A DNA stretch of 30,363 nucleotides from Thermoplasmatota archaeon (GTDB lineage: Archaea > Thermoplasmatota > E2 > DHVEG-1), in NCBI GenBank assembly GCA_035527635.1, contig DATLAF010000187.1, positions 1-30,363 of the forward strand, read 5' to 3'. Made by a program: the position numbers and the translations under genes. Positions 7,109-27,421 of the stretch are shown here, piece by piece (position 1 is the stretch's first letter; each line of letters begins with the position of its first letter). Below the pieces are notes generated by a model. It was given only the letters and a program-made list of their open reading frames with translations. It ran no database searches and had not been told where the DNA came from.

Positions 7109-8050
7109 ATGGGTGTATCATCTGGAAAAAATAACAACATCGTCGTTCTTTCTTTTTTTGTAATACCGGCTGTTATGTTGATTGTTGGCTATCTTTTATT
7201 CCCGTACCCACCGTCAACACTTGCAAGGCAGATTTCGTTTGTGCCAATGTTTCTCGGTTTATTGTTCCTCGGCGTCGGATTTTTTTATCGGAAAAAAAAC
7301 ACAGCAAGTATGTTAAAAATTATTGGGTGGAGCCTGTTTTCATCCTTCTGGGCTACCATGCCGGGTTTCCTGTATTTTTCAGAGGGTGGTGATGTCTTTA
7401 ACGCAGCTGTCTGCGTCATCGGTGTGTATGTGCTCATCTATATGGCGTACCATGAATGGCTTTCGATAAAAACAAACGAGCATGTCTCGTGTTTGAATTG
7501 GATTGCTGGCGGAACGTTTCTTGCAGGTATGATCTATTTTACGATTGAGAACGGCATTATCCCTGGATTGCAAGATTGGTTAATTGAATTTGTTGCAGCA
7601 CAAACCACGGATGTTTTGCATCTCTTAGGAATCAATGCTAGTAGAACCCAGTCCCTTATCGTCTACAACAACACACCCGTAACGATTATCTTTGCGTGTA
7701 CTGCGATCCAATCCATCGTCCTGTTTGTTGGCATGATTGGTGCATTACCGCGTGTAACTCTGAAACGAAAAGCACTGGGGTTGGCGATAACAGTTGTCCC
7801 TATTTATTTTTTGAATCTCCTTCGAAACGCTAGTGTGGTATTTATGGTGGGGAGCGGTATGTTCTCCTTTGAGATTGCCCATAATGTAATTGGTAAAGCA
7901 GGATCGTTGATCGCCCTGATCGTTTTGTTGTTTATCACCTTTAAAATCTTACCCGAGCTCTATGACGAGATCATCGGTATCATCGATTTACCGAAACGAA
8001 AAGGACCCGTAGAGCTTTTCTTTGGGGGTCTTCTGAGGAAAAAAACATGA
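7109..8050 (+). CDS. artA: Archaeosortase A
   Basis: Multi-TM protein with catalytic-type motifs FACTAIQS (Cys), NLLRN (Arg) and AHNVIGKAGSL. Confidence 0.88.
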   Translation: MGVSSGKNNNIVVLSFFVIPAVMLIVGYLLFPYPPSTLARQISFVPMFLGLLFLGVGFFYRKKNTASMLKIIGWSLFSSFWATMPGFLYFSEGGDVFNAAVCVIGVYVLIYMAYHEWLSIKTNEHVSCLNWIAGGTFLAGMIYFTIENGIIPGLQDWLIEFVAAQTTDVLHLLGINASRTQSLIVYNNTPVTIIFACTAIQSIVLFVGMIGALPRVTLKRKALGLAITVVPIYFLNLLRNASVVFMVGSGMFSFEIAHNVIGKAGSLIALIVLLFITFKILPELYDEIIGIIDLPKRKGPVELFFGGLLRKKT

Positions 8051-8697
8051 TACGTATCGCTAAGGGTGGAAGGCCTTGGGTTCTTCCGTCGTTTGCCCTA
8101 ACCTTCCTCTTCGCTGGGGCTTGCTATTTCACCACTCGTCTGTTGTTTATTTTTTTCTGCGCTCTTTCAATATTCTTCTTTTTAGTTTCCTGTCTTCTGA
8201 TTGTTTTTTTCCGAGACCCAGAGCGAGTGAACGGCTCTGGGATTGTGGCTGTGGCCGATGGGAAGATACGAGCGGTTATGAATCTCCAGGATCCTGATGT
8301 TGGAGAATGTCTTATGGTTTCTACGTTTATGAACATCCATAATGTGCATGTGAACCGCATGCCGTTTGATGGAACGATTGAGAAGCTCTCCCATTATGAT
8401 GGTGGTCATCTGCCAGCGTTCAAAAAAGAATCTGATTCCAATGAACGGGTCGTTCTTCTCATCCATACTGACCTTGGGGTAATGAAAATTGTTCAGATCG
8501 CGGGAACCGTTGCACGTCGCATCGTCCCATATGTTACCGAAGGAGCCTTCCTAAAGAAAGGGGGAAAGATCGGACTGATCCGACTTGGGTCCCGTGTTGA
8601 TCTGTATTTACCGGTAACTACAATAAAAACACTCATGATTCAGGTTCATGATACCATAAAAGCAGGAGAAGATACCATTGCAGAAACCCATGATTAA
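8047..8697 (+). CDS. psd: Phosphatidylserine/archaetidylserine decarboxylase proenzyme
   Basis: FFRDPER, ADGKI, HVNRMP, NER, QIAG-VARRI and the self-cleavage motif LGSRVD. Confidence 0.95.
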   Translation: MIRIAKGGRPWVLPSFALTFLFAGACYFTTRLLFIFFCALSIFFFLVSCLLIVFFRDPERVNGSGIVAVADGKIRAVMNLQDPDVGECLMVSTFMNIHNVHVNRMPFDGTIEKLSHYDGGHLPAFKKESDSNERVVLLIHTDLGVMKIVQIAGTVARRIVPYVTEGAFLKKGGKIGLIRLGSRVDLYLPVTTIKTLMIQVHDTIKAGEDTIAETHD

Positions 8698-9388
8698 ACT
8701 CCTGTCTGTAGCAGACATAGTCACCCTGATGAACGCGGTAATGGGGTTCCTAGCCTTGCTGATGGTTTTTTCTAACCAGATTCAACTTGCTGCCTCATTG
8801 ATTCTTCTGGCTCTTATCATGGATGGTCTTGATGGGATCGTGGCCCGACGCATGGGAAACGGACAAATAGGGGAACATCTTGAAGCTATCGCAGATATGA
8901 TCTCTTTGTCGGTGGCACCTCTTGCTCTTTTCTATACAACCTATTACCACGCGGTGGTTTTACAACCCTTTATGCATCTTCTCCTTGGTTTCATAGTGGT
9001 GTTTTCTTTGATCTGCAGCGTCATTCGTCTCTCATCATTTTCTCTTTTAAAGCAGAACCATGTCTTTCTTGGCCTGCCAACTTCGGTAAGTGCGTTATTC
9101 CTTGTGTTAAACTCGTTTTTAAACCTAGAGATATGGGTTGTTCTCCCTGTTGTTCTTCTTCTTTCTCTTGCAATGATTTCTTCAATACATTTCCCAAAAC
9201 TGGGTTTGAAAATAGATCTGATTACCGCTTTATTTATCATTGCCACTATCTTGCTTAACAGCAGTTATTATAACATCGCACCGCTCCTCCTTCTCGCAGC
9301 GCTTACCTGTTATGTTATTTTGGGGCCGATCCTTCTTCGTTTTAAAAAAAAGAATCCTGTTACTGGAACGGGAGATACTCGTAGCTGA
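8690..9388 (+). CDS. pssA: CDP-alcohol phosphatidyltransferase, archaetidylserine synthase type
   Basis: DGLDGIVARR...G..L-AIAD-IS CDP-alcohol motif, IRLSSF, FLGLPT. ATG 8690 overlaps the psd stop region. Confidence 0.88.
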   Translation: MIKLLSVADIVTLMNAVMGFLALLMVFSNQIQLAASLILLALIMDGLDGIVARRMGNGQIGEHLEAIADMISLSVAPLALFYTTYYHAVVLQPFMHLLLGFIVVFSLICSVIRLSSFSLLKQNHVFLGLPTSVSALFLVLNSFLNLEIWVVLPVVLLLSLAMISSIHFPKLGLKIDLITALFIIATILLNSSYYNIAPLLLLAALTCYVILGPILLRFKKKNPVTGTGDTRS

Positions 9389-18326: not shown

Positions 18327-19136
18327 GTGAAAACAACTCCACTCGCTAAACTGACCTTGCTGCAACAGATGATACGAGATTTGAAGAATTGCGCGATAGC
18401 GTATTCTGGCGGGCTCGATAGCACTTTTTTGATAAAAGTCGCGTACGACACACTTGGCACAAACGCTCTCGCGGTCACCGCAACCTCCTCAACCTACCCA
18501 CAGCGAGAATTAAAGGATGCGAAACGCTTTGCACAGACGATAGGGATCCCCCATGTCATTATTCATTCTGAAGAACTTGATATTTCTCAGTTCTCCGGTA
18601 ATCCTCCTGACCGCTGTTACTATTGTAAAAAAGAATTATTCCGTAAAATACAGCAGATTGCACAGGACCATCATCTTGATGCAGTCCTTGACGGGTCGAA
18701 CGCTGATGACATAATTGATTATCGACCTGGGGCGAAAGCATGCAAAGAACTTGGAATCATAAGTCCGCTAAAAGAGGTTGGGTTCACCAAACAAGAGATT
18801 AGAGACCTTTCATCCGCGATGCATTTGGAGAGTTCTGAGAAACCAGCGTTTGCGTGTCTTGCCTCCCGGTTCCCCTACGGGGTACAAATCACCAAAGAAC
18901 GACTTAAGGTGGTTGAATCTGCTGAGGAGTTTCTTTTCTCTTTAGGAATCCGACAATGCCGGGTGCGGTATCATGGTCAGATCGCGCGCATCGAAGTGGT
19001 ATCAGATGATTTTCAAACCATTCTTACCCATGCTCAAAAGATTGTAAAACGTTTTAAAAAACTTGGATTTACCTACAGCACCCTTGACCTTGAAGGGTAT
19101 CGGACCGGAAGTTTGAACGAGGTGCTTAAGAAATGA
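18327..19136 (+). CDS. larE: ATP-dependent sulfur transferase LarE ([4Fe-4S]-type cysteine pattern)
   Basis: PP-loop AYSGGLDS, RCYYCK, DYRPG, FACLASRFPYG, RVRYHG, GYRTGSLN; GTG start. Confidence 0.92.
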   Translation: MKTTPLAKLTLLQQMIRDLKNCAIAYSGGLDSTFLIKVAYDTLGTNALAVTATSSTYPQRELKDAKRFAQTIGIPHVIIHSEELDISQFSGNPPDRCYYCKKELFRKIQQIAQDHHLDAVLDGSNADDIIDYRPGAKACKELGIISPLKEVGFTKQEIRDLSSAMHLESSEKPAFACLASRFPYGVQITKERLKVVESAEEFLFSLGIRQCRVRYHGQIARIEVVSDDFQTILTHAQKIVKRFKKLGFTYSTLDLEGYRTGSLNEVLKK

Positions 19137-19858
19137 AGAAATTGTTACAAGACTACAAGGCAGGGAAAGTCGGTCTGTCAACCGTCCTGCAGAAAATAAG
19201 ATCATTACCGTACGAGGATTTAGAGTTTGCAAAAATCGACACGCATCGGGAAGTTCGAAAAGGATTTCCTGAGACAATTTTCTGCCAAGGGAAGACCCTA
19301 TCTCAGATTGCTCAGATTCTTCAGAAACTCCCCGGAGAACAAAATATCCTTCTTACAAAAGCAAATAAAACCATCTATGCTTCCGTCAAGAAATCCTATC
19401 CTATCGCACAGTACAATGAATCAGCAAAAACCATTGTCATCCAACGATATAAACCCAAACAAAACAAAGGAACTATCTTGATTCTTACCGCGGGAACCTC
19501 TGATATCCCTGTCGCAGAAGAAGCAGTCGTCACCGCACAGCTTATGGGAAACAAAGTCGAGAAAGTCTATGACGTTGGGGTCGCCGGCGTCCATCGCCTG
19601 TTCGATATAAAAGATAAGATCTTTCACGCAAACGTCATCATTGTGATCGCAGGGATGGAAGGGGCCCTTGCCAGTATTGTTGGTGGTCTTGCCTCAAAAC
19701 CAGTCATCGCGGTTCCGACCAGTGTCGGGTATGGCGCAAGCTTCCATGGGATAGCACCGCTCCTGACCATGCTGAATTGCTGCGCGGAAGGTGTAGCAGT
19801 CGTCAACATTGACAACGGGTTTGGCGCCGGGTATTTCGCCAGCATCATTAACAGGTGA
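19133..19858 (+). CDS. larB: Nickel-pincer cofactor biosynthesis protein LarB
   Basis: DTHREVRKGFPE, AGTSDIPVAEEA, DVGVAGVHR, AGMEGAL, VNIDNGFGA. Confidence 0.95.
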   Translation: MKKLLQDYKAGKVGLSTVLQKIRSLPYEDLEFAKIDTHREVRKGFPETIFCQGKTLSQIAQILQKLPGEQNILLTKANKTIYASVKKSYPIAQYNESAKTIVIQRYKPKQNKGTILILTAGTSDIPVAEEAVVTAQLMGNKVEKVYDVGVAGVHRLFDIKDKIFHANVIIVIAGMEGALASIVGGLASKPVIAVPTSVGYGASFHGIAPLLTMLNCCAEGVAVVNIDNGFGAGYFASIINR

Positions 19859-19864
19859 GGAACC

Positions 19865-20599
19865 ATGACGATCGCGTACTTTGATTGTTTCTCTGGGATT
19901 GCTGGTGATATGATTCTTGGTGCCCTCATTGACCTGGGAGTTGACGTACCGTTTTTAAAAAAAGAACTGCAAAAACTTCATCTTACCGGGTACGACATCA
20001 TAGTAAAACAAGTTGAATGTAACCATATTGCTGCGACAGATGTTACAGTGACTGTTACGGATGATCAGCATCATCGAAGCCTTTCTGATATCATTGACCT
20101 TCTCAATCGTAGCAGCTTAGCCCCCGAGGTGAAAAAACAGAGTCAAAACATCTTTTATAACCTAGGTCGTGTAGAAGCAAAAATACACAGAATTGACATC
20201 GAAAAAGTACATTTTCATGAAGTCGGTGCGGTTGATTCCATCATTGACGTCGTCGGGTCGGTCATTGGTATAGCCAAGCTTGGCATCGATACGATTTATT
20301 GTTCACCCCTTCCCCTTGGCCATGGGTTTGTGTCCTGTGATCATGGTCTCCTTCCGCTGCCTGCCCCAGCGACCGTTGAACTGCTTAAGGGAATTCCAGT
20401 GTACTCTGTTGACCGAAAACAGGAGACAGTCACCCCGACTGGTGCAGCAATCATCATGACCCTTGCGCAAACGTTTGGTGAAATGCCACCGATGAACATC
20501 AGCAAGATAGGGTACGGAAACGGGAAAATAAAAAGCGAGTATCCAAACCTGCTCCGGGTGTTTCTGGGTACTCTTGCACTGAAACGAAAAAAAAAATAA
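19865..20599 (+). CDS. larC: Nickel insertion protein LarC, N-terminal (LarC1) domain only
   Basis: DCFSGIAGDM, HFHEVGAVDSIID, LPLPAPAT, TPTGAA, GYG...PNLLRV, then a stop at 244 aa. Confidence 0.88.
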   Translation: MTIAYFDCFSGIAGDMILGALIDLGVDVPFLKKELQKLHLTGYDIIVKQVECNHIAATDVTVTVTDDQHHRSLSDIIDLLNRSSLAPEVKKQSQNIFYNLGRVEAKIHRIDIEKVHFHEVGAVDSIIDVVGSVIGIAKLGIDTIYCSPLPLGHGFVSCDHGLLPLPAPATVELLKGIPVYSVDRKQETVTPTGAAIIMTLAQTFGEMPPMNISKIGYGNGKIKSEYPNLLRVFLGTLALKRKKK

Positions 20600-21123: not shown

Positions 21124-21133
21124 TTTTTTTTTT
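21124..21133 (+). terminator. Putative oligo(T) terminator for a plus-strand transcript
   Basis: T10 run on the + strand although the flanking CDSs are on the - strand. Confidence 0.3.
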
Positions 21134-21764
21134 ATTTATTTGCTGGTGGGCCAGCTTTTTCAACTAATGCTTCCTCAGTAGTTATTTTTTTATGAAGGAG
21201 AGCAACAGAGGAAATCAATGCTATAATCGAAACGACGATCATCAGATACCAGGCGTACCCAGGGCCACCGGTGATTGCGACCCCCAGGACCGATTGGCTG
21301 AACCAAAAATCACTACTGCTTTCTGAGAACCCCGTCGTCATGACATACAACGCAGGCATCAACGCAAGCAAGAATGTGAGAAACCCAAAACCACCACCAA
21401 TATATTTCATGATTTTCAAAGTTCCCAGGCGAAATACGAACGCAGCCATCCCGATCAGGGAAATAAGAGCGGTCGCCATCGCAAACATTGTTAGATACAT
21501 CGCGTTTTCAATGGTCGAAAAACTCTGTGTGTTCACTCCAACGATTTGTGCGTTTTCCTCTGCTTCCACATACCCCATTGACCAGGAGATATCCTGACCA
21601 GTGATGGAACCTTTCGCTTCAATACTGCGTAGATAGAACCCCACGGTATATTCGCCCCCGAATGTACCGGTCCCGTTCATCGTATACCATGGTCCCATGA
21701 ATGCCACAATGAGAAGTATCAATACACCAAGCATACCGACAAAAGCAACGATTCCGTTCCGCAT
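21132..21764 (-). CDS. Hypothetical 4-TM membrane protein
   Basis: TM1, a long Gly/Thr/Ser-rich loop, TM2-3, a short loop, TM4. Start set at MRNGIV; the longer ORF start would overlap archease. Confidence 0.75.
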   Translation of the reverse strand: MRNGIVAFVGMLGVLILLIVAFMGPWYTMNGTGTFGGEYTVGFYLRSIEAKGSITGQDISWSMGYVEAEENAQIVGVNTQSFSTIENAMYLTMFAMATALISLIGMAAFVFRLGTLKIMKYIGGGFGFLTFLLALMPALYVMTTGFSESSSDFWFSQSVLGVAITGGPGYAWYLMIVVSIIALISSVALLHKKITTEEALVEKAGPPANK

Positions 21765-21810
21765 GAACAAAGAAAACAAATTTCCTCTATTTATACCCCA
21801 CTTTTCATAC

Positions 21811-22221
21811 TCAGATATCGAATAACACTTGTACAAAAACCGGGTCTTTCTCATGAACCTGGAGCATATGATACGTCACTGCTTTGATCTCCATACCCAT
21901 CCTATGCTTCTTCGTATCGTACTTCTCACCACAGACCTTGGCGGAGAGATGGTTTCCCGTAATAGTCACCACAAACTTCCCAAACACAAGGTCCTCGGCG
22001 TCATTCAAAAAAAGGAGTTTTGAGAGCCAATCAACCAACAGCTGCTCAAGGTCAGGAGCCTCTAACAGGATATCATATTCACCGATGGAATCGATTGTTG
22101 ATTCATCGGTAATAATATCAAACATCCCTTGCGCAGCATGCTCGAATGCCTCTGCAACAGTCTTCCCGTATGCTTTCACGCCGACGTCAGCGGTATGTTC
22201 GACTAATTCATACTGTTTCAT
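21811..22221 (-). CDS. Archease
   Basis: YELVEHTADVG, LLVDWLSKLL, EIKAVTYH, C-terminal FDI. Confidence 0.95.
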   Translation of the reverse strand: MKQYELVEHTADVGVKAYGKTVAEAFEHAAQGMFDIITDESTIDSIGEYDILLEAPDLEQLLVDWLSKLLFLNDAEDLVFGKFVVTITGNHLSAKVCGEKYDTKKHRMGMEIKAVTYHMLQVHEKDPVFVQVLFDI

Positions 22222-22982: not shown

Positions 22983-23029
22983 AAACCCAACCAAGACCAA
23001 GAAATGTTTAATTGTTTAAAGAGATACCT

Positions 23030-23707
23030 ATGACGATGAGAGTCGCAGCGTTATTCTCCGGTGGAAAAGACTCGGTCTTCGCAGTGTACATCACACAACA
23101 GTATGGATGGGAGGTTTCCCACCTCGTCACCCTTCTCCCAGAAAAACCTGATTCCTGGATGTTCCATTCAATCAATATCCAATTAACCGACCAACTTGCG
23201 AAAGCACTCAATTTCCCGCTTGTGAAAAAATCAACGAACGGTGAAAAAGAAACAGAGCTGTTAGATTTAAAACATCTGCTGCAGGGCCTTGAGATTGATG
23301 GGGTGATAAGCGGAGCGATCGCCTCAGAGTATCAACGGACCCGTATTGAAAGAATATGTGACGAACTTGGAATCAAATCATTTACCCCCTTATGGCATAA
23401 AAATCAAGAGCTTCTGCTCAGAGACCAGGTCAAAGCAGGGTTTCACATCATCGTTGTAGGCGTGTTCGCACAGGGGTTTGACGAGACGTGGCTGGGCAAA
23501 ACCATTGACGAAGAAACCATTGATGCTCTGGTATACCTCAATAAAAAGAATGGGATTAACATCGCTGGTGAAGGAGGGGAATTCGAGACACTCGTGCTCT
23601 CCGGGCCTATGTTTTCCAAGAAGCTTGTCATCGATGAGTCCTTAAAAGAATGGAGTCGAGACTCCGGTGTTTTCCAGGTGAAAAAAGCCCATCTTGAACT
23701 ATGCTAA
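23030..23707 (+). CDS. dph6: Diphthine--ammonia ligase
   Basis: LFSGGKDS, SWMFH, SGAIASEYQ, PLW, GEGGEFET. Start is ATG 23030 or 23036. Confidence 0.93.
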   Translation: MTMRVAALFSGGKDSVFAVYITQQYGWEVSHLVTLLPEKPDSWMFHSINIQLTDQLAKALNFPLVKKSTNGEKETELLDLKHLLQGLEIDGVISGAIASEYQRTRIERICDELGIKSFTPLWHKNQELLLRDQVKAGFHIIVVGVFAQGFDETWLGKTIDEETIDALVYLNKKNGINIAGEGGEFETLVLSGPMFSKKLVIDESLKEWSRDSGVFQVKKAHLELC

Positions 23708-24057
23708 TATCGAATGTAATGAAGAGCGTAGAGTTGTTGCAGGAATAAAAAGAGCCGTTGATCAATGTTTTTTTCATCAGGGAATTCCTTGGTGACCACT
23801 GCAAGGATCTCTTTGACAGGCTTTGTTCCGTCGCACTGTTTCCAGATCGCTGATCCAAGCTTGTCAAGCTTTGCTTCAAAAACATTCTCTTTCTTCAGTA
23901 CTCTACAGAAGGATTTCCCAATCTTACTGGTGAATTTTGGAACTACTATCGTGACAAGGCCATCGTCGTTAGTGGACCAGTGAAAATCTAACCGTATCGG
24001 TTTGTATACGAGAAACTCATCAACCGTCGGCAGTCCTTTACTTTTCGTCTTTCGCGT
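23704..24057 (-). CDS. PqqD-like (RRE/winged-helix) small protein, absent from the ORF track
   Basis: Manual translation gives a 117-codon open frame ...LPTVDEFLVYKPIR...GLVTIVVPKF...KLDKLGSAIWKQCDGTKPVKEIL....KEFPDE...RLFLFLQQL...YIRY*. There is no ATG/GTG/TTG; ACG 24057 lies 6 nt after GAGGG. Confidence 0.78.
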   Translation of the reverse strand, partial: TRKTKSKGLPTVDEFLVYKPIRLDFHWSTNDDGLVTIVVPKFTSKIGKSFCRVLKKENVFEAKLDKLGSAIWKQCDGTKPVKEILAVVTKEFPDEKNIDQRLFLFLQQLYALHYIRY

Positions 24058-26089
24058 AAATTTCCCTCAACGGGATGTAGGCAAGGAGCGCTGCGATGAA
24101 GACCCAGACGAGCACTGATGGTAAGATCGGCGGGTATTCGAAGATCGTAAAGTTTAATCCTCCGATGATGAGGAACGCGACAATGACACCCATCAGGGCC
24201 TCTCCTGCGATTAACCCCGCGGTGAGAAGAAGTCCGGTTCTTATAATCTTTTCTTTTGGTGCAACATCGGTCTGTTTGATAGCAAGATCCCAGTCGCTGA
24301 TCTCTTCTTCTTCAGCAGACCCGTATTTCTTCATGATCGCCCTGTTGGTGATGGCACGGACGATACCACCAGCAAAAATAGGGGTACTTAAGGTGAATGG
24401 AAGATAAATTCCGATTGCTACCGGGAGAACAGGGAGGTTAACGAGGATGAGCGCAAAGGCAAGCACCGCCCCGGCGACCACGAACGGCCAAACCAGTTGG
24501 CCACCAAGGACACCTTGGACGATCCCTTGCATGAGAAACGCCTGCGGCGCAGGCAGATTTGTACTCCCAATGTGATACGCTTTATCCAACGCTTGAATAA
24601 CCAATGCAAGAATAGGTGCGGCCGCAGCAACACCGATGAGTTCAGCAATCTGTTGATTCCGTGGTGTCGCACCGATCATCTGACCGCAGGTTAACGACTG
24701 CAGCACATCCCCTGAGATTGCAGCAGCACAACATATAACCGCGGCGATGAGAATCGCGATACCTGCAGCACCAGTATTGCCGGAAAGACCAAACCCAAGG
24801 AGAATCAATGACGTGATCAATAATACCGAGACCGTAACCCCAGAGATCGGGTTGTTCGATGATCCCAGCAGCCCAGCCATGTACCCCGCAATCGCACTAG
24901 CAACGAATGCGAATAAAATGGCGAACACCGCCATGATTGCAGAGACTGCCCATAAACTTGAAATCCACACATACAACAGGAAGACAGGGATGGTTAGTGC
25001 CCCAATCATCAGGAAAACGAACTTGATGTTGAGATCTGTGTCTGTCCTTTTTTTTGTTACCTCTTTCCCGCCTTTAATACCTGCCACTGCTTCTTTGATA
25101 CCGCTGGCAAGGTTCGATCGGAGTTTGAAGATTGTGTATAGACCACCGACGACCATCGCGCCAACACCAATGTACCGAATGTAGTTCCCCCAAATAGCAA
25201 AGAAACCCCAGATCTGATATCCCATATCTGCGTTTCCGAATCCTAACGCAAGTGCATCGGTTACTTGTGAAGGAGAAACCGGTGTGGGAAGGCCTGTTGC
25301 TAAGGCAATAAGGGGAACAAGAATCACCCAGCCGATAAGACCTCCGACGAAGACGAACGCGGCTATTTTAGGTCCTATAATCCAGCCGACACCAAGTAAG
25401 GCGGGAGACGTGGCAACTCCACCATAGAAAACCCCTGATTTTTCTCCGCTTCCGATGTCGAATTTTCCGATATTTGCAATCCCATGGACTGCGCCAGCAA
25501 ATATTTTAAGACCAACCTGACTGAATTTGAATAAACCTGCAGTCAACACACCAACGATAAGCCAAACCGCACTGACACCGCTTCCCTGAGATTTCTTTCC
25601 TGTTTCAGCTTCACTTCCACCAACCGTTGTGGTTAGCACCGCGGCGACCGCAACTCCTTCAGGGAACGGAAGATCGGTTTTAATAATCAGTGCCCTTCGA
25701 AGAGGCACCATCCAAAAAACACCAAGCATACCACCAAATAACGCAACCAGTGTTGTTTCGATGTAATGAATCTCTGTCCAGGTTCCCATGATAACAAGGG
25801 CAGGGATGGTAAAAATAACTCCAGCGGCGAGTGCCTCACCGGCGGCAGCACCCATCATCCCGATGTTGACTTCTAAAATCGTCCCTTTAAAAGGTTTGAG
25901 AAATGCGAACGCCATAACCGCCCCTGGGATAACCGCAGACACTGTCATACCTGCGTATAAACCGAGATACGCGTTTGCCGCTCCAAGAATCACTGCGAGA
26001 ATGGCCCCGACCAACACCGCTTTCAAGGTTAGTTCCGGTATCTTTTTTTCAGCTGGAATAAATGACTTGAAATCGTCTCGAGATGACAT
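24038..26089 (-). CDS. OPT family oligopeptide transporter (YSL-like prokaryotic clade)
   Basis: ELTLKAV, NAYLGLYAG, LPFPEG-A, GSSNNPISG, GATPRNQQ, APQAFLM, GLIAGEALMG. Confidence 0.95.
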   Translation of the reverse strand: MSSRDDFKSFIPAEKKIPELTLKAVLVGAILAVILGAANAYLGLYAGMTVSAVIPGAVMAFAFLKPFKGTILEVNIGMMGAAAGEALAAGVIFTIPALVIMGTWTEIHYIETTLVALFGGMLGVFWMVPLRRALIIKTDLPFPEGVAVAAVLTTTVGGSEAETGKKSQGSGVSAVWLIVGVLTAGLFKFSQVGLKIFAGAVHGIANIGKFDIGSGEKSGVFYGGVATSPALLGVGWIIGPKIAAFVFVGGLIGWVILVPLIALATGLPTPVSPSQVTDALALGFGNADMGYQIWGFFAIWGNYIRYIGVGAMVVGGLYTIFKLRSNLASGIKEAVAGIKGGKEVTKKRTDTDLNIKFVFLMIGALTIPVFLLYVWISSLWAVSAIMAVFAILFAFVASAIAGYMAGLLGSSNNPISGVTVSVLLITSLILLGFGLSGNTGAAGIAILIAAVICCAAAISGDVLQSLTCGQMIGATPRNQQIAELIGVAAAAPILALVIQALDKAYHIGSTNLPAPQAFLMQGIVQGVLGGQLVWPFVVAGAVLAFALILVNLPVLPVAIGIYLPFTLSTPIFAGGIVRAITNRAIMKKYGSAEEEEISDWDLAIKQTDVAPKEKIIRTGLLLTAGLIAGEALMGVIVAFLIIGGLNFTIFEYPPILPSVLVWVFIAALLAYIPLREIYAKDEK

Positions 26090-26170: not shown

Positions 26171-27421
26171 TTATATCTCAAGAGGGTAGCGCAAGATTCC
26201 AGCAAGGCCACTAAACGCAGCATACAACGACTCGCCTTCCTCGCTATTCCTTGAAATAAGCTTCACCGTAGCACTTGTTTTTTCCGCAAGATCAGACAGT
26301 TCATCGACCAAATCCACTTTTTGTATTATCTCCATTGGGATTGAGGTTTGACACGTCGGGCAAGCAGGGGGCGTAAAACTCTCGAAATCCTCCTCGCTTA
26401 AGGTTTTTTCTTGCGTATAGCCACAGGATTGACATTTCATAGTGATCCGGTACTTCCGCAGATCCTCGGAAAGAAGCAAGGTATCAACCACACCCATCTC
26501 AAGTGCTTTTCTTACTTGATGTTCCCCGTATACCGCCATGCTTTTCTCTGACTTCGTCACCTGAGATAAGAACCGCTTCATGATATTTTTTTCCTGAGAC
26601 ACCTTGAGGTCCGTCATTTTATCGGACGCTGTAGCAATCAGCTCTCGCAGCCCAAATTCATCGGTATAACCGGTATCAAACGTATCGATGATTTTCTTCT
26701 GAATCTCATAATGAAGATACACTTCATCAACGAAATAATGTTTCGTTGGACCAGGGCCGCCTACCAAAATACCTTTCAATTTCGGTTCCCCAAGAAAGAT
26801 TTCACTTGCCCGCTCACCGCATTTCACGAACCATTCATGGGCAGCAATCTCTGTATTCCGTTCGAATCTTCGCTGGGACTGACCTCCTCTCCCGTGTTTC
26901 CCAGGAACCTGCGATGTCATGTAACGAATCATCTCAATGCGACTGCCACGCAGCATCCCAATCGTGCACTCTCTTCGATCAATAAGAAATAACCCATAGA
27001 TTTCCTTCTCAGTGAGTATCTCCTCCAATGGTTGTGTATAAAACTCTGAGTCACAACGGTACAGAAATGTGACCAAAGGCATGGGGGGCTCAAGGATGTA
27101 GGCGACCATGTCCGTTTTATCAGCACCAACGCTTTTATGACCGACAAACATGGCTAACCCATTCGGTGGTGGCTGCTTGAAAGTTTTCAGGCGGCTCATG
27201 ATCGATTCGATCGCAGATAACACATTCTTCATCGTCGTCTTTGACTTAATGTTCTGTGATTGCGAGTACTCATTTCGAAGATAGGATACGACGTCAAAGA
27301 TTTGTTTCGACGGCGGGACGTACAATGAGATAAGTTCGGTGTGTTTCCCTCTGCATTTCTTCAACTCTTCCAGTTGGCGTTTCAGATCGTAGATCTGCCG
27401 CTGGGTCATTTCATCTGCCAT
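26171..27421 (-). CDS. prf1: Peptide chain release factor aRF1
   Basis: NIKS, YRCDSEF, HGRGGQS; CQSC/CPTC zinc minidomain. Confidence 0.97.
   Translation of the reverse strand: MADEMTQRQIYDLKRQLEELKKCRGKHTELISLYVPPSKQIFDVVSYLRNEYSQSQNIKSKTTMKNVLSAIESIMSRLKTFKQPPPNGLAMFVGHKSVGADKTDMVAYILEPPMPLVTFLYRCDSEFYTQPLEEILTEKEIYGLFLIDRRECTIGMLRGSRIEMIRYMTSQVPGKHGRGGQSQRRFERNTEIAAHEWFVKCGERASEIFLGEPKLKGILVGGPGPTKHYFVDEVYLHYEIQKKIIDTFDTGYTDEFGLRELIATASDKMTDLKVSQEKNIMKRFLSQVTKSEKSMAVYGEHQVRKALEMGVVDTLLLSEDLRKYRITMKCQSCGYTQEKTLSEEDFESFTPPACPTCQTSIPMEIIQKVDLVDELSDLAEKTSATVKLISRNSEEGESLYAAFSGLAGILRYPLEI

Follow-up and report, generated by a model that had tools for sequence, protein, structure and literature searches.

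The stretch of DNA analyzed here, called the window below, comprises 30,363 nucleotides (nt) from a Thermoplasmatota archaeon (assembly GCA_035527635.1, contig DATLAF010000187.1, forward strand). On its minus strand, positions 23704-24057 encode a conserved protein of about 117 amino acids (aa), which belongs to the PqqD family and has the fold of a RiPP recognition element (RRE; RiPP, a peptide made by the ribosome and modified after translation). This small gene lies directly behind a gene for a transporter of the oligopeptide transporter (OPT) family and overlaps its 3′ end, and it is met from the other side by the convergent dph6 gene. The features assigned at the locus are as follows.

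23704-24057, minus strand: coding sequence of the PqqD/RRE-fold protein, 117 codons (24057 to 23707) plus the TAG stop at 23704-23706, with a proposed ACG start at 24055-24057; assigned by translation, a Pfam match, 271 homologues, the codon-position and pN/pS signal (nonsynonymous over synonymous polymorphism), and an AlphaFold2 (AF2) model with a mean predicted local distance difference test (pLDDT) of 89.3.
24038-26089, minus strand: gene for an OPT-family oligopeptide transporter of 683 aa (PF03169, TIGR00733), the conserved upstream partner.
24038-24057, minus strand: 20-nt overlap of the OPT gene and the small gene; the OPT gene ends with TAA (24038-24040), and the small gene is in frame +1 with respect to it.
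24055-24057, minus strand: ACG where distant relatives carry a TTG start, the fourth codon after an in-frame TGA.
24065-24068, minus strand: GAGG, a Shine-Dalgarno-like motif within the OPT Leu-Arg codons, 7 nt upstream of the ACG.
23872-24036, minus strand: subfamily-specific N-terminal extension (LPTVDEFLxYKPxR..W) and amphipathic basic helix between β2 and β3, from alignments A1 and A6, the model, and the hydrophobic moment.
23713-23871, minus strand: Pfam PqqD region (profile positions 14-67), β3 and three helices, from the profile search and the model.
23012-23707, plus strand: dph6 (diphthine-ammonia ligase; PF01902, 252 bits), convergent, with overlapping 3′ ends.

The frame of the small gene begins after an in-frame TGA at 24067-24069 and runs through 120 open codons to the TAG at 23704-23706, its last four nucleotides (23704-23707) being shared with dph6. 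The first-pass annotation of this DNA had described an intact 117-codon frame between dph6 and the OPT gene. The open frame at 24057-23704 was confirmed, and the coordinates bore out the overlaps of 20 nt with the OPT 3′ end and 4 nt with dph6, but it had been overlooked that the frame has no canonical start. An ordinary archaeal gene has ATG, GTG, or TTG at its 5′ end; here the first 86 codons contain none of these, the first being a GTG at about codon 87, and 14 of 21 related species likewise lack such a start. The small gene is for this reason missing from the listing of open reading frames (ORFs). The junction was identical, with no insertion or deletion, in two independent metagenome assemblies (X2 and X3), where the one difference nearby (24010 G>A) leaves the small protein unchanged. 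Thus, the start-less frame is not an assembly error.

Several lines of evidence argue for a real gene. First, the Pfam PqqD profile (PF05402) matched residues 64-116 with 31.7 bits against a cut-off of 23.4 (E = 1.9e-7), so that the PqqD pattern noticed earlier in the C-terminal half holds in a profile search; in a scan of the whole genome (1.96 Mb, 90% complete), the small gene was the single match. Second, 271 homologues of 95-129 aa were found at E ≤ 0.001 (best, 1e-52). The top ones, 75-78% identical, come from Thermoplasmatota metagenome bins, some of them named "PqqD family protein" by NCBI, and conservation in their alignment spans the protein from the LPTVDEF motif to the C-terminus. 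Third, among 11 species with no canonical start, codons 10-42 varied at 15 first, 14 second, and 28 third codon positions, with a pN/pS of 0.35 for these codons and 0.19 for the rest of the gene. The N-terminal codons, which in these species precede any canonical start, are under purifying selection. Variation biased toward third positions, together with a pN/pS of 0.19-0.35 and 271 homologues, is far beyond chance. The products of gene callers in close relatives were truncated (79-89 aa), and a non-standard ACG start in this lineage appears to explain why gene finders miss or shorten the small gene. Two metatranscriptome runs yielded only short contigs, 88-96% identical to parts of the relatives' OPT genes and none of them spanning the small gene.

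The AF2 model of the small protein was confident (pLDDT 89.3; predicted TM-score, 0.76). It placed strands at residues 27-30, 36-41, and 60-64, helices at 67-75, 82-92, and 99-112, and an extra helix at 46-54. In the model, a three-stranded antiparallel sheet is followed by three helices, which is the winged helix of an RRE, as the first-pass annotation had supposed. The best structural matches were RREs crystallized with leader peptides: TbiB1 (Z 10.8; TM 0.75, root mean square deviation 2.4 over 81 residues), a lasso B1 protein (Z 9.8), ThcOx (Z 8.8), and PqqD (Z 8.5). Matches at Z 5-6.5 were DNA-binding domains of the Fur/PerR and OmpR types. R22 and W27 are invariant in archaea and bacteria (alignments A1 and A6), and the helix inserted between β2 and β3 is amphipathic and basic (hydrophobic moment, 0.6-0.9). 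Most members are basic, with an isoelectric point (pI) of 9-10, and some bacterial members are acidic (pI 4.9-5.4). Pattern scans were not feasible on alignments A2 and A4, whose sequences diverge too far.

The small protein did not reach the level of the PqqD of pyrroloquinoline quinone (PQQ) biosynthesis, with 30.3 bits against 46 for TIGR03859 and 25.6 against 101 for NF002535, nor that of the lasso-peptide B1 chaperone (NF033536, 16.3 bits against 80), and it stayed under the NCBIfam cut-offs for the PqqD, lasso, GeoRSP, and ScmD chaperones. Bacterial partner genes at loci L085 and L156 passed PF05402 with 47.5 and 33.4 bits. The OPT matched PF03169 with 265 bits and TIGR00733 with 393.9 bits against a cut-off of 182.5.

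The gene order at the locus is conserved in Thermoplasmatota. A recurrent block of beta-CASP, aRF1, OPT, PqqD-like, dph6 (convergent), MTAP, and archease genes was found in 58 species-level genomes, and the OPT gene stands directly upstream on the same strand in all 57 species loci with upstream sequence. Some related loci that keep the OPT and PqqD-like genes lack dph6 and MTAP; dph6 is merely a neighbor outside the module. Among 251 Thermoplasmatota genomes sampled, 158 contained the small gene and 184 an OPT gene, and families without one were mostly without both. Nearly all pairs listed for both searches were adjacent, genomes with two copies having two adjacent pairs; the exceptions were one genus with weaker matches (G238, G155, G202, and G048) and genome G017. 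Unpaired OPT paralogues also occur. A second OPT of this genome (G000, contig C27:7630-9615), 57% identical, has no PqqD-like gene downstream, and ten relatives also hold unpaired paralogues (loci L091-L100).

Three observations concern these archaeal transporters in their own right. In another Thermoplasmatota OPT paralogue group, 37-38% identical to the OPT of the window (L133:4479-5081 and L145:4525-5082), the PqqD-like partner has an acidic N-terminal extension of about 80 aa. Across relatives, the OPT is at least as conserved as the neighboring aRF1 (26171-27421), with 80% and 68% identity, respectively, at L020, which is unusual for a transporter. At the junction L048:5109-5160, which has long A runs, the OPT frame continues 25 nt beyond the end of homology to a TGA; this may reflect a homopolymer error or a slippage-prone sequence.

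The pair is found in bacteria as well. A profile search of the small-protein family gave 871 related clusters, and an OPT gene was upstream in 10 bacterial loci found from the PqqD side. The small gene lies directly behind OPT in Caldithrix-like bins, Acidobacteriota, Phycisphaerales, and the cultured Thermoanaerobacter thermocopriae (OPT 34-40% identical), and the pair was also found in Gemmatimonadota, Bacteroidales, Actinomycetota, Thermoanaerobacter, Lachnospiraceae, Blautia, and Faecalibacterium (OPT 34-42% identical in bacteria). Viewed from the OPT side, a PqqD-like ORF was directly downstream in 31 of the 75 OPT loci with enough downstream sequence, in taxa that include Gemmatimonadota, Vicinamibacterales, Thermoanaerobaculia, Aminicenantes, Bacteroidales, Actinomycetota, Lachnospiraceae, Blautia, Faecalibacterium, and Faecalimonas. 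Bacterial junctions range from a TGATG overlap to a 252-nt spacer, in any frame. Within the class of Thermoanaerobacter, 19 of 40 genomes have the gene, which is behind OPT in 8 of 12 loci and in two loci follows an Opp-type SBP_bac_5 peptide-binding protein instead. Genes beyond the bacterial pair vary (def-fmt, S9 prolyl oligopeptidase, M29 peptidase, GH94, NYN); the flanks differ among phyla and the pair alone persists. More distant PqqD proteins are in ABC-transporter clusters. The first-pass annotation had conceived of a two-gene system from this one locus. In the neighborhood analysis, the adjacency is conserved beyond local synteny, and the OPT/small-gene pair is a two-gene module present across Thermoplasmatota and at least six bacterial phyla.

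Some bacterial loci have features of their own. In the four Thermoanaerobacteria loci in which the gene is not behind OPT (L102, L105, L107, and L110), it comes after SBP_bac_5 in two and after an unknown 420-aa protein in two, and genes for a conserved unknown 192-aa protein and an AIR-synthase-related (PurM-like) protein come next in each case. In an Aminicenantes bin (L142:5049-6496) and a Eubacteriales bin (L181:5016-6476), from unrelated phyla, the pair is followed by genes for peptide deformylase and Met-tRNA formyltransferase. A gammaproteobacterial bin (L120:4461-5263) has two tandem PqqD-like ORFs behind OPT.

The archaeal loci point to a common place of initiation. In all of them, the frame opens after a TGA made by the Leu-Arg codons of OPT (cTG AGG). 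At codon 4 after this TGA, 34 loci carry TTG, 21 carry ACG (the window clade among them), and a single locus, L024, carries ATG; the TTG is kept although the OPT residue varies among F, I, and L. Of the ACG-clade species, 14 are without ATG, GTG, or TTG ahead of or outside the conserved LPTVDEF motif, and seven have gained one at varying positions. The GAGG lies 7 nt upstream of codon 4, and the long ORFs of this genome show an enrichment of GAGG 7-10 nt ahead of their starts; it is from this enrichment that the Shine-Dalgarno motif was derived, the 90%-complete metagenome-assembled genome containing no 16S rRNA. The small gene thus has what marks a Shine-Dalgarno-led cistron, namely a conserved motif at the distance typical of the genome and within the upstream gene.

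Codon usage in the OPT gene adds to this picture. Of 49 paired OPTs, 48 use AGG for the Arg codon that forms GAGG, against 1 of the 11 unpaired paralogues, which belong to the same family, keep the peptide YIPLRE, and served as the control. Only 9.6% of all Arg codons in the genome's long ORFs are AGG, and other conserved Arg columns are mixed. The OPT Tyr codon that overlaps the ACG is TAC in 17 of 17 cases, the sole frozen column among 13 conserved Tyr columns; TAT, which accounts for 66% of Tyr codons in the long ORFs, would create an ATG here. The only archaeal locus with ATG at codon 4 (L024:4845-4870) is also the only one with AGA (GAGA rather than GAGG), a single case that may represent compensation between start-codon and Shine-Dalgarno strength. 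That AGA replaces AGG only where the start is ATG suggests that expression is kept low.

Collectively, these comparisons make Shine-Dalgarno-aided initiation at codon 4 likely, and it is probably coupled to the termination of OPT 17 nt downstream. The candidate N-terminal peptide predicted from the ACG start is (M/T)RKTKSKGLPTVDEF. Translational coupling had been put forward in the first-pass annotation, and both the overlap and the conserved internal motif are consistent with it. Shine-Dalgarno motifs matter for reinitiation at overlapping archaeal gene pairs (PMC7531240), and about 30% of the putative alternative start sites in Haloferax are near-cognate codons (PMC7261190). Three other codons were tried as starts and rejected: CTG at codon 9 of the 117-codon frame (the L of LPTV, M in one database record), as a general start, is CTT, CTA, TTA, or CCT in relatives; AAG, the third codon of the 117-codon frame, is AAA or ACA; and a second ACG, its fourth codon, is ACA or ACC.

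On the whole, we lean slightly toward reading the small protein as an accessory protein of OPT that would be made by Shine-Dalgarno-assisted, coupled initiation at a weak start codon. In the proposed mechanism, a ribosome, either terminating or newly bound, would be placed 7 nt upstream of codon 4 by the GAGG in the OPT Leu-Arg codons. The small gene would then, more likely than not, be translated by coupling to OPT, from TTG in most lineages and from the near-cognate ACG here, and the ACG start would give a low, sub-stoichiometric output. Amounts of this kind, expected from weak start codons, fit a regulator or chaperone better than a fixed subunit. It is quite possible, if somewhat short of probable, that the small protein is an accessory that binds peptides at the cytoplasmic face of the transporter. 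The groove of the RRE between β3 and α3 would bind an extended peptide, either the imported substrate or a segment of OPT, and the substrate would be handed on, or uptake gated, as GlnK does with AmtB. Peptide binding against β3 and α3 is suggested by the fold. The role as cytoplasmic accessory or regulator draws on the RRE fold, the pairing with a peptide importer, the N-terminal extension, and the basic helix, as well as on the absence of RiPP enzymes and the occasional peptidase or Opp neighbors. A single co-folding job with OPT (alignment A5) and the small protein (A6) gave a score of 0.00, which counts neither way on binding.

All characterized RREs bind RiPP leader peptides, and the nearest structures to the model are lasso and cyanobactin RREs. 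The small protein could accordingly be an orphan RiPP recognition element that presents a precursor to a maturase encoded elsewhere, with OPT importing or exporting the product; according to the RRE-Finder study (PMC7470986), RiPP classes not yet known might account for discrete RREs that lack known machinery. However, a RiPP component would lie beside, or be fused to, a maturase and a precursor, and no radical SAM, YcaO, lasso B2/C, or LanB-like gene or precursor was found beside the pair in the 30-kb window or in the scanned bacterial loci, which agrees with the earlier remark that neither a radical SAM enzyme nor a precursor peptide is nearby. The archaeal neighbors are OPT, aRF1, beta-CASP, dph6, MTAP, and archease genes, the bacterial ones def-fmt, peptidases, GH94, and NYN. 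OPT is the sole constant neighbor across phyla, and PF05402 has its sole match in the genome here, which makes the orphan element improbable. By sequence and fold, the small protein belongs to the PqqD family, yet it is not a RiPP RRE by context, and it very likely has no part in PQQ or RiPP biosynthesis.

The winged helix-turn-helix is the source of the RRE fold, and the Fur/PerR and OmpR-type matches at Z 5-6.5, together with the mostly basic pI of 9-10, would also suit a small winged-helix DNA-binding regulator of the OPT operon. We regard such a regulator as unlikely too, as the RREs scored above every DNA binder by Z, and helix 3 (IDQRLFLFLQQL), hydrophobic and with only one Arg, does not resemble a recognition helix. 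Furthermore, some bacterial members are acidic, and the sequence matches PqqD and no regulator family.

Two explanations of the missing start are very unlikely. In the first, a +1 ribosomal frameshift at the OPT TAA stop (AAG-T-AAA-GGA) would produce an OPT-RRE fusion in this clade. The small gene is indeed in the +1 frame of OPT and lacks a canonical start, and +1 shifts classically occur with a stop codon in the A site, but the sense codon before the stop differs among loci (AAG, GAG, GAA, AGG), and re-pairing in +1 is not possible for it. In sister clades the gene starts at a TTG of its own, bacterial pairs are 0-252 nt apart in any frame, no fusion was found, and the conserved GAGG would go unexplained. 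In the second, the gene would be silent or decaying in the window clade after loss of the TTG start, as the 86 codons with no ATG, GTG, or TTG and the short gene calls of 79-89 aa in relatives might suggest. Against such decay, the frame is open and of full length in 21 of 21 ACG-clade species, the Shine-Dalgarno motif is still conserved, and the start-less species show the third-position bias and the pN/pS values (0.35 N-terminal, 0.19 for the rest) given above. Some OPT/YSL carriers move metal chelates, and hypA and larB/larC are in the window, but the cytoplasmic nickel-chelate receptor that the first-pass annotation had entertained on this ground is highly improbable, since hypA is 7.7 kb away from the pair, larB/larC are only local synteny (12 of 26 long archaeal loci, in close relatives), neither hypA nor larB/larC is in the seven bacterial loci scanned for downstream genes, and the conserved Cys is the ordinary CDG motif of PqqD-family proteins.

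Several points weigh against an OPT accessory protein translated from a weak start. First, OPT function in general does not need the partner, as seen from the second OPT of this genome and from the 44 of 75 OPT loci that lack one. Second, paired (29) and unpaired (11) OPTs differed in no discriminating residue or loop, contact of the small protein with OPT is putative, and a search for OPT-PqqD fusions or longer forms found none, which is weak evidence. Candidate fusions suggested by long frames across OPT in L125 and L126 and by a frame of 340 aa in L178 were rejected as open frames in GC-rich DNA or read-through into unrelated sequence. Third, the case for the ACG start and for expression is comparative, and the relatives in the counts are non-independent observations. 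The gained downstream ATG and TTG codons may mean that the ACG arrangement is a tolerated defect rather than a tuned state. To our knowledge, ACG initiation has not been demonstrated in archaea. AUG, GUG, and UUG are listed as archaeal starts in PMC7531240, and ACG is not. A broader reading, in which many prokaryotes have a dedicated, previously overlooked cytoplasmic RRE-fold OPT subunit, the first RRE outside natural-product biosynthesis, which would bind imported peptides or part of the transporter so as to gate or pass on substrate, with a conserved ACG start that selection keeps from becoming ATG in one clade, is conceivable and in our view doubtful.

RRE domains serve to mark RiPP gene clusters irrespective of class, and we know of no accessory protein for prokaryotic OPT transporters, which are barely characterized. 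Our literature search found no report linking PqqD or RRE proteins to OPT transporters. If the proposed role is correct, the RRE fold gains a new biological role, and a large RRE subfamily tied to peptide import would be a source of systematic false positives in RiPP mining. Carriers of the module include peptide-degrading sediment archaea and Firmicutes that are abundant in the human gut (Blautia, Faecalibacterium, Lachnospiraceae), and its presence in cultured Thermoanaerobacter opens it to experiment. The ACG case would provide a clean comparative example of a conserved non-canonical archaeal start and shows a route by which a gene escapes annotation.

The window has other features. At 19133-20599, a 244-aa LarC is encoded behind a larB-like aminoimidazole ribonucleotide (AIR) carboxylase gene; the match of this LarC, which is short or split, covers only positions 1-235 of the 375 in the Ni_insertion profile. 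A predicted membrane protein of 240 aa (21132-21854, minus strand), with no Pfam match, has a 44-nt overlap with the start of the archease gene and is found in only 5 close relatives. The region 7109-9388 encodes an exosortase/archaeosortase-like membrane protein (weak PF09721) and then phosphatidylserine decarboxylase and CDP-alcohol phosphatidyltransferase.

Compared to known systems, the pair exhibits both shared and distinct features. First, like the discrete RREs (PqqD; lasso B1 proteins such as TbiB1, PDB 5V1U), the small protein matches PF05402, has a winged-helix fold, and is a stand-alone protein of about 100 aa. Unlike them, it has a transporter as its constant neighbor and no maturase or precursor nearby, and its N-terminus has a conserved extension (PxR...W), with an additional amphipathic helix lying between β2 and β3. 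Second, as in archaeal termination-reinitiation coupling, so far as the summary of Huber et al. (2019) in PMC7531240 describes it, the putative start and Shine-Dalgarno motif are inside the upstream gene, while the overlap here is 17-20 nt rather than the usual 1-4 nt and the start would be ACG. Third, the evidence for a weak start is comparative here, and the likeness to other near-cognate starts is that the ACG is conserved though one OPT-synonymous base change would give ATG. Such starts, for example AUU of bacterial infC and eukaryotic ACG or CUG, set low expression. Finally, GlnK is a small cytoplasmic regulator of AmtB that is encoded downstream of its transporter. Its fold is unrelated to that of the small protein, for which transporter binding and ligand sensing are putative, and the analogy would lie in the arrangement, a transporter gene followed by that of a co-translated small soluble protein.

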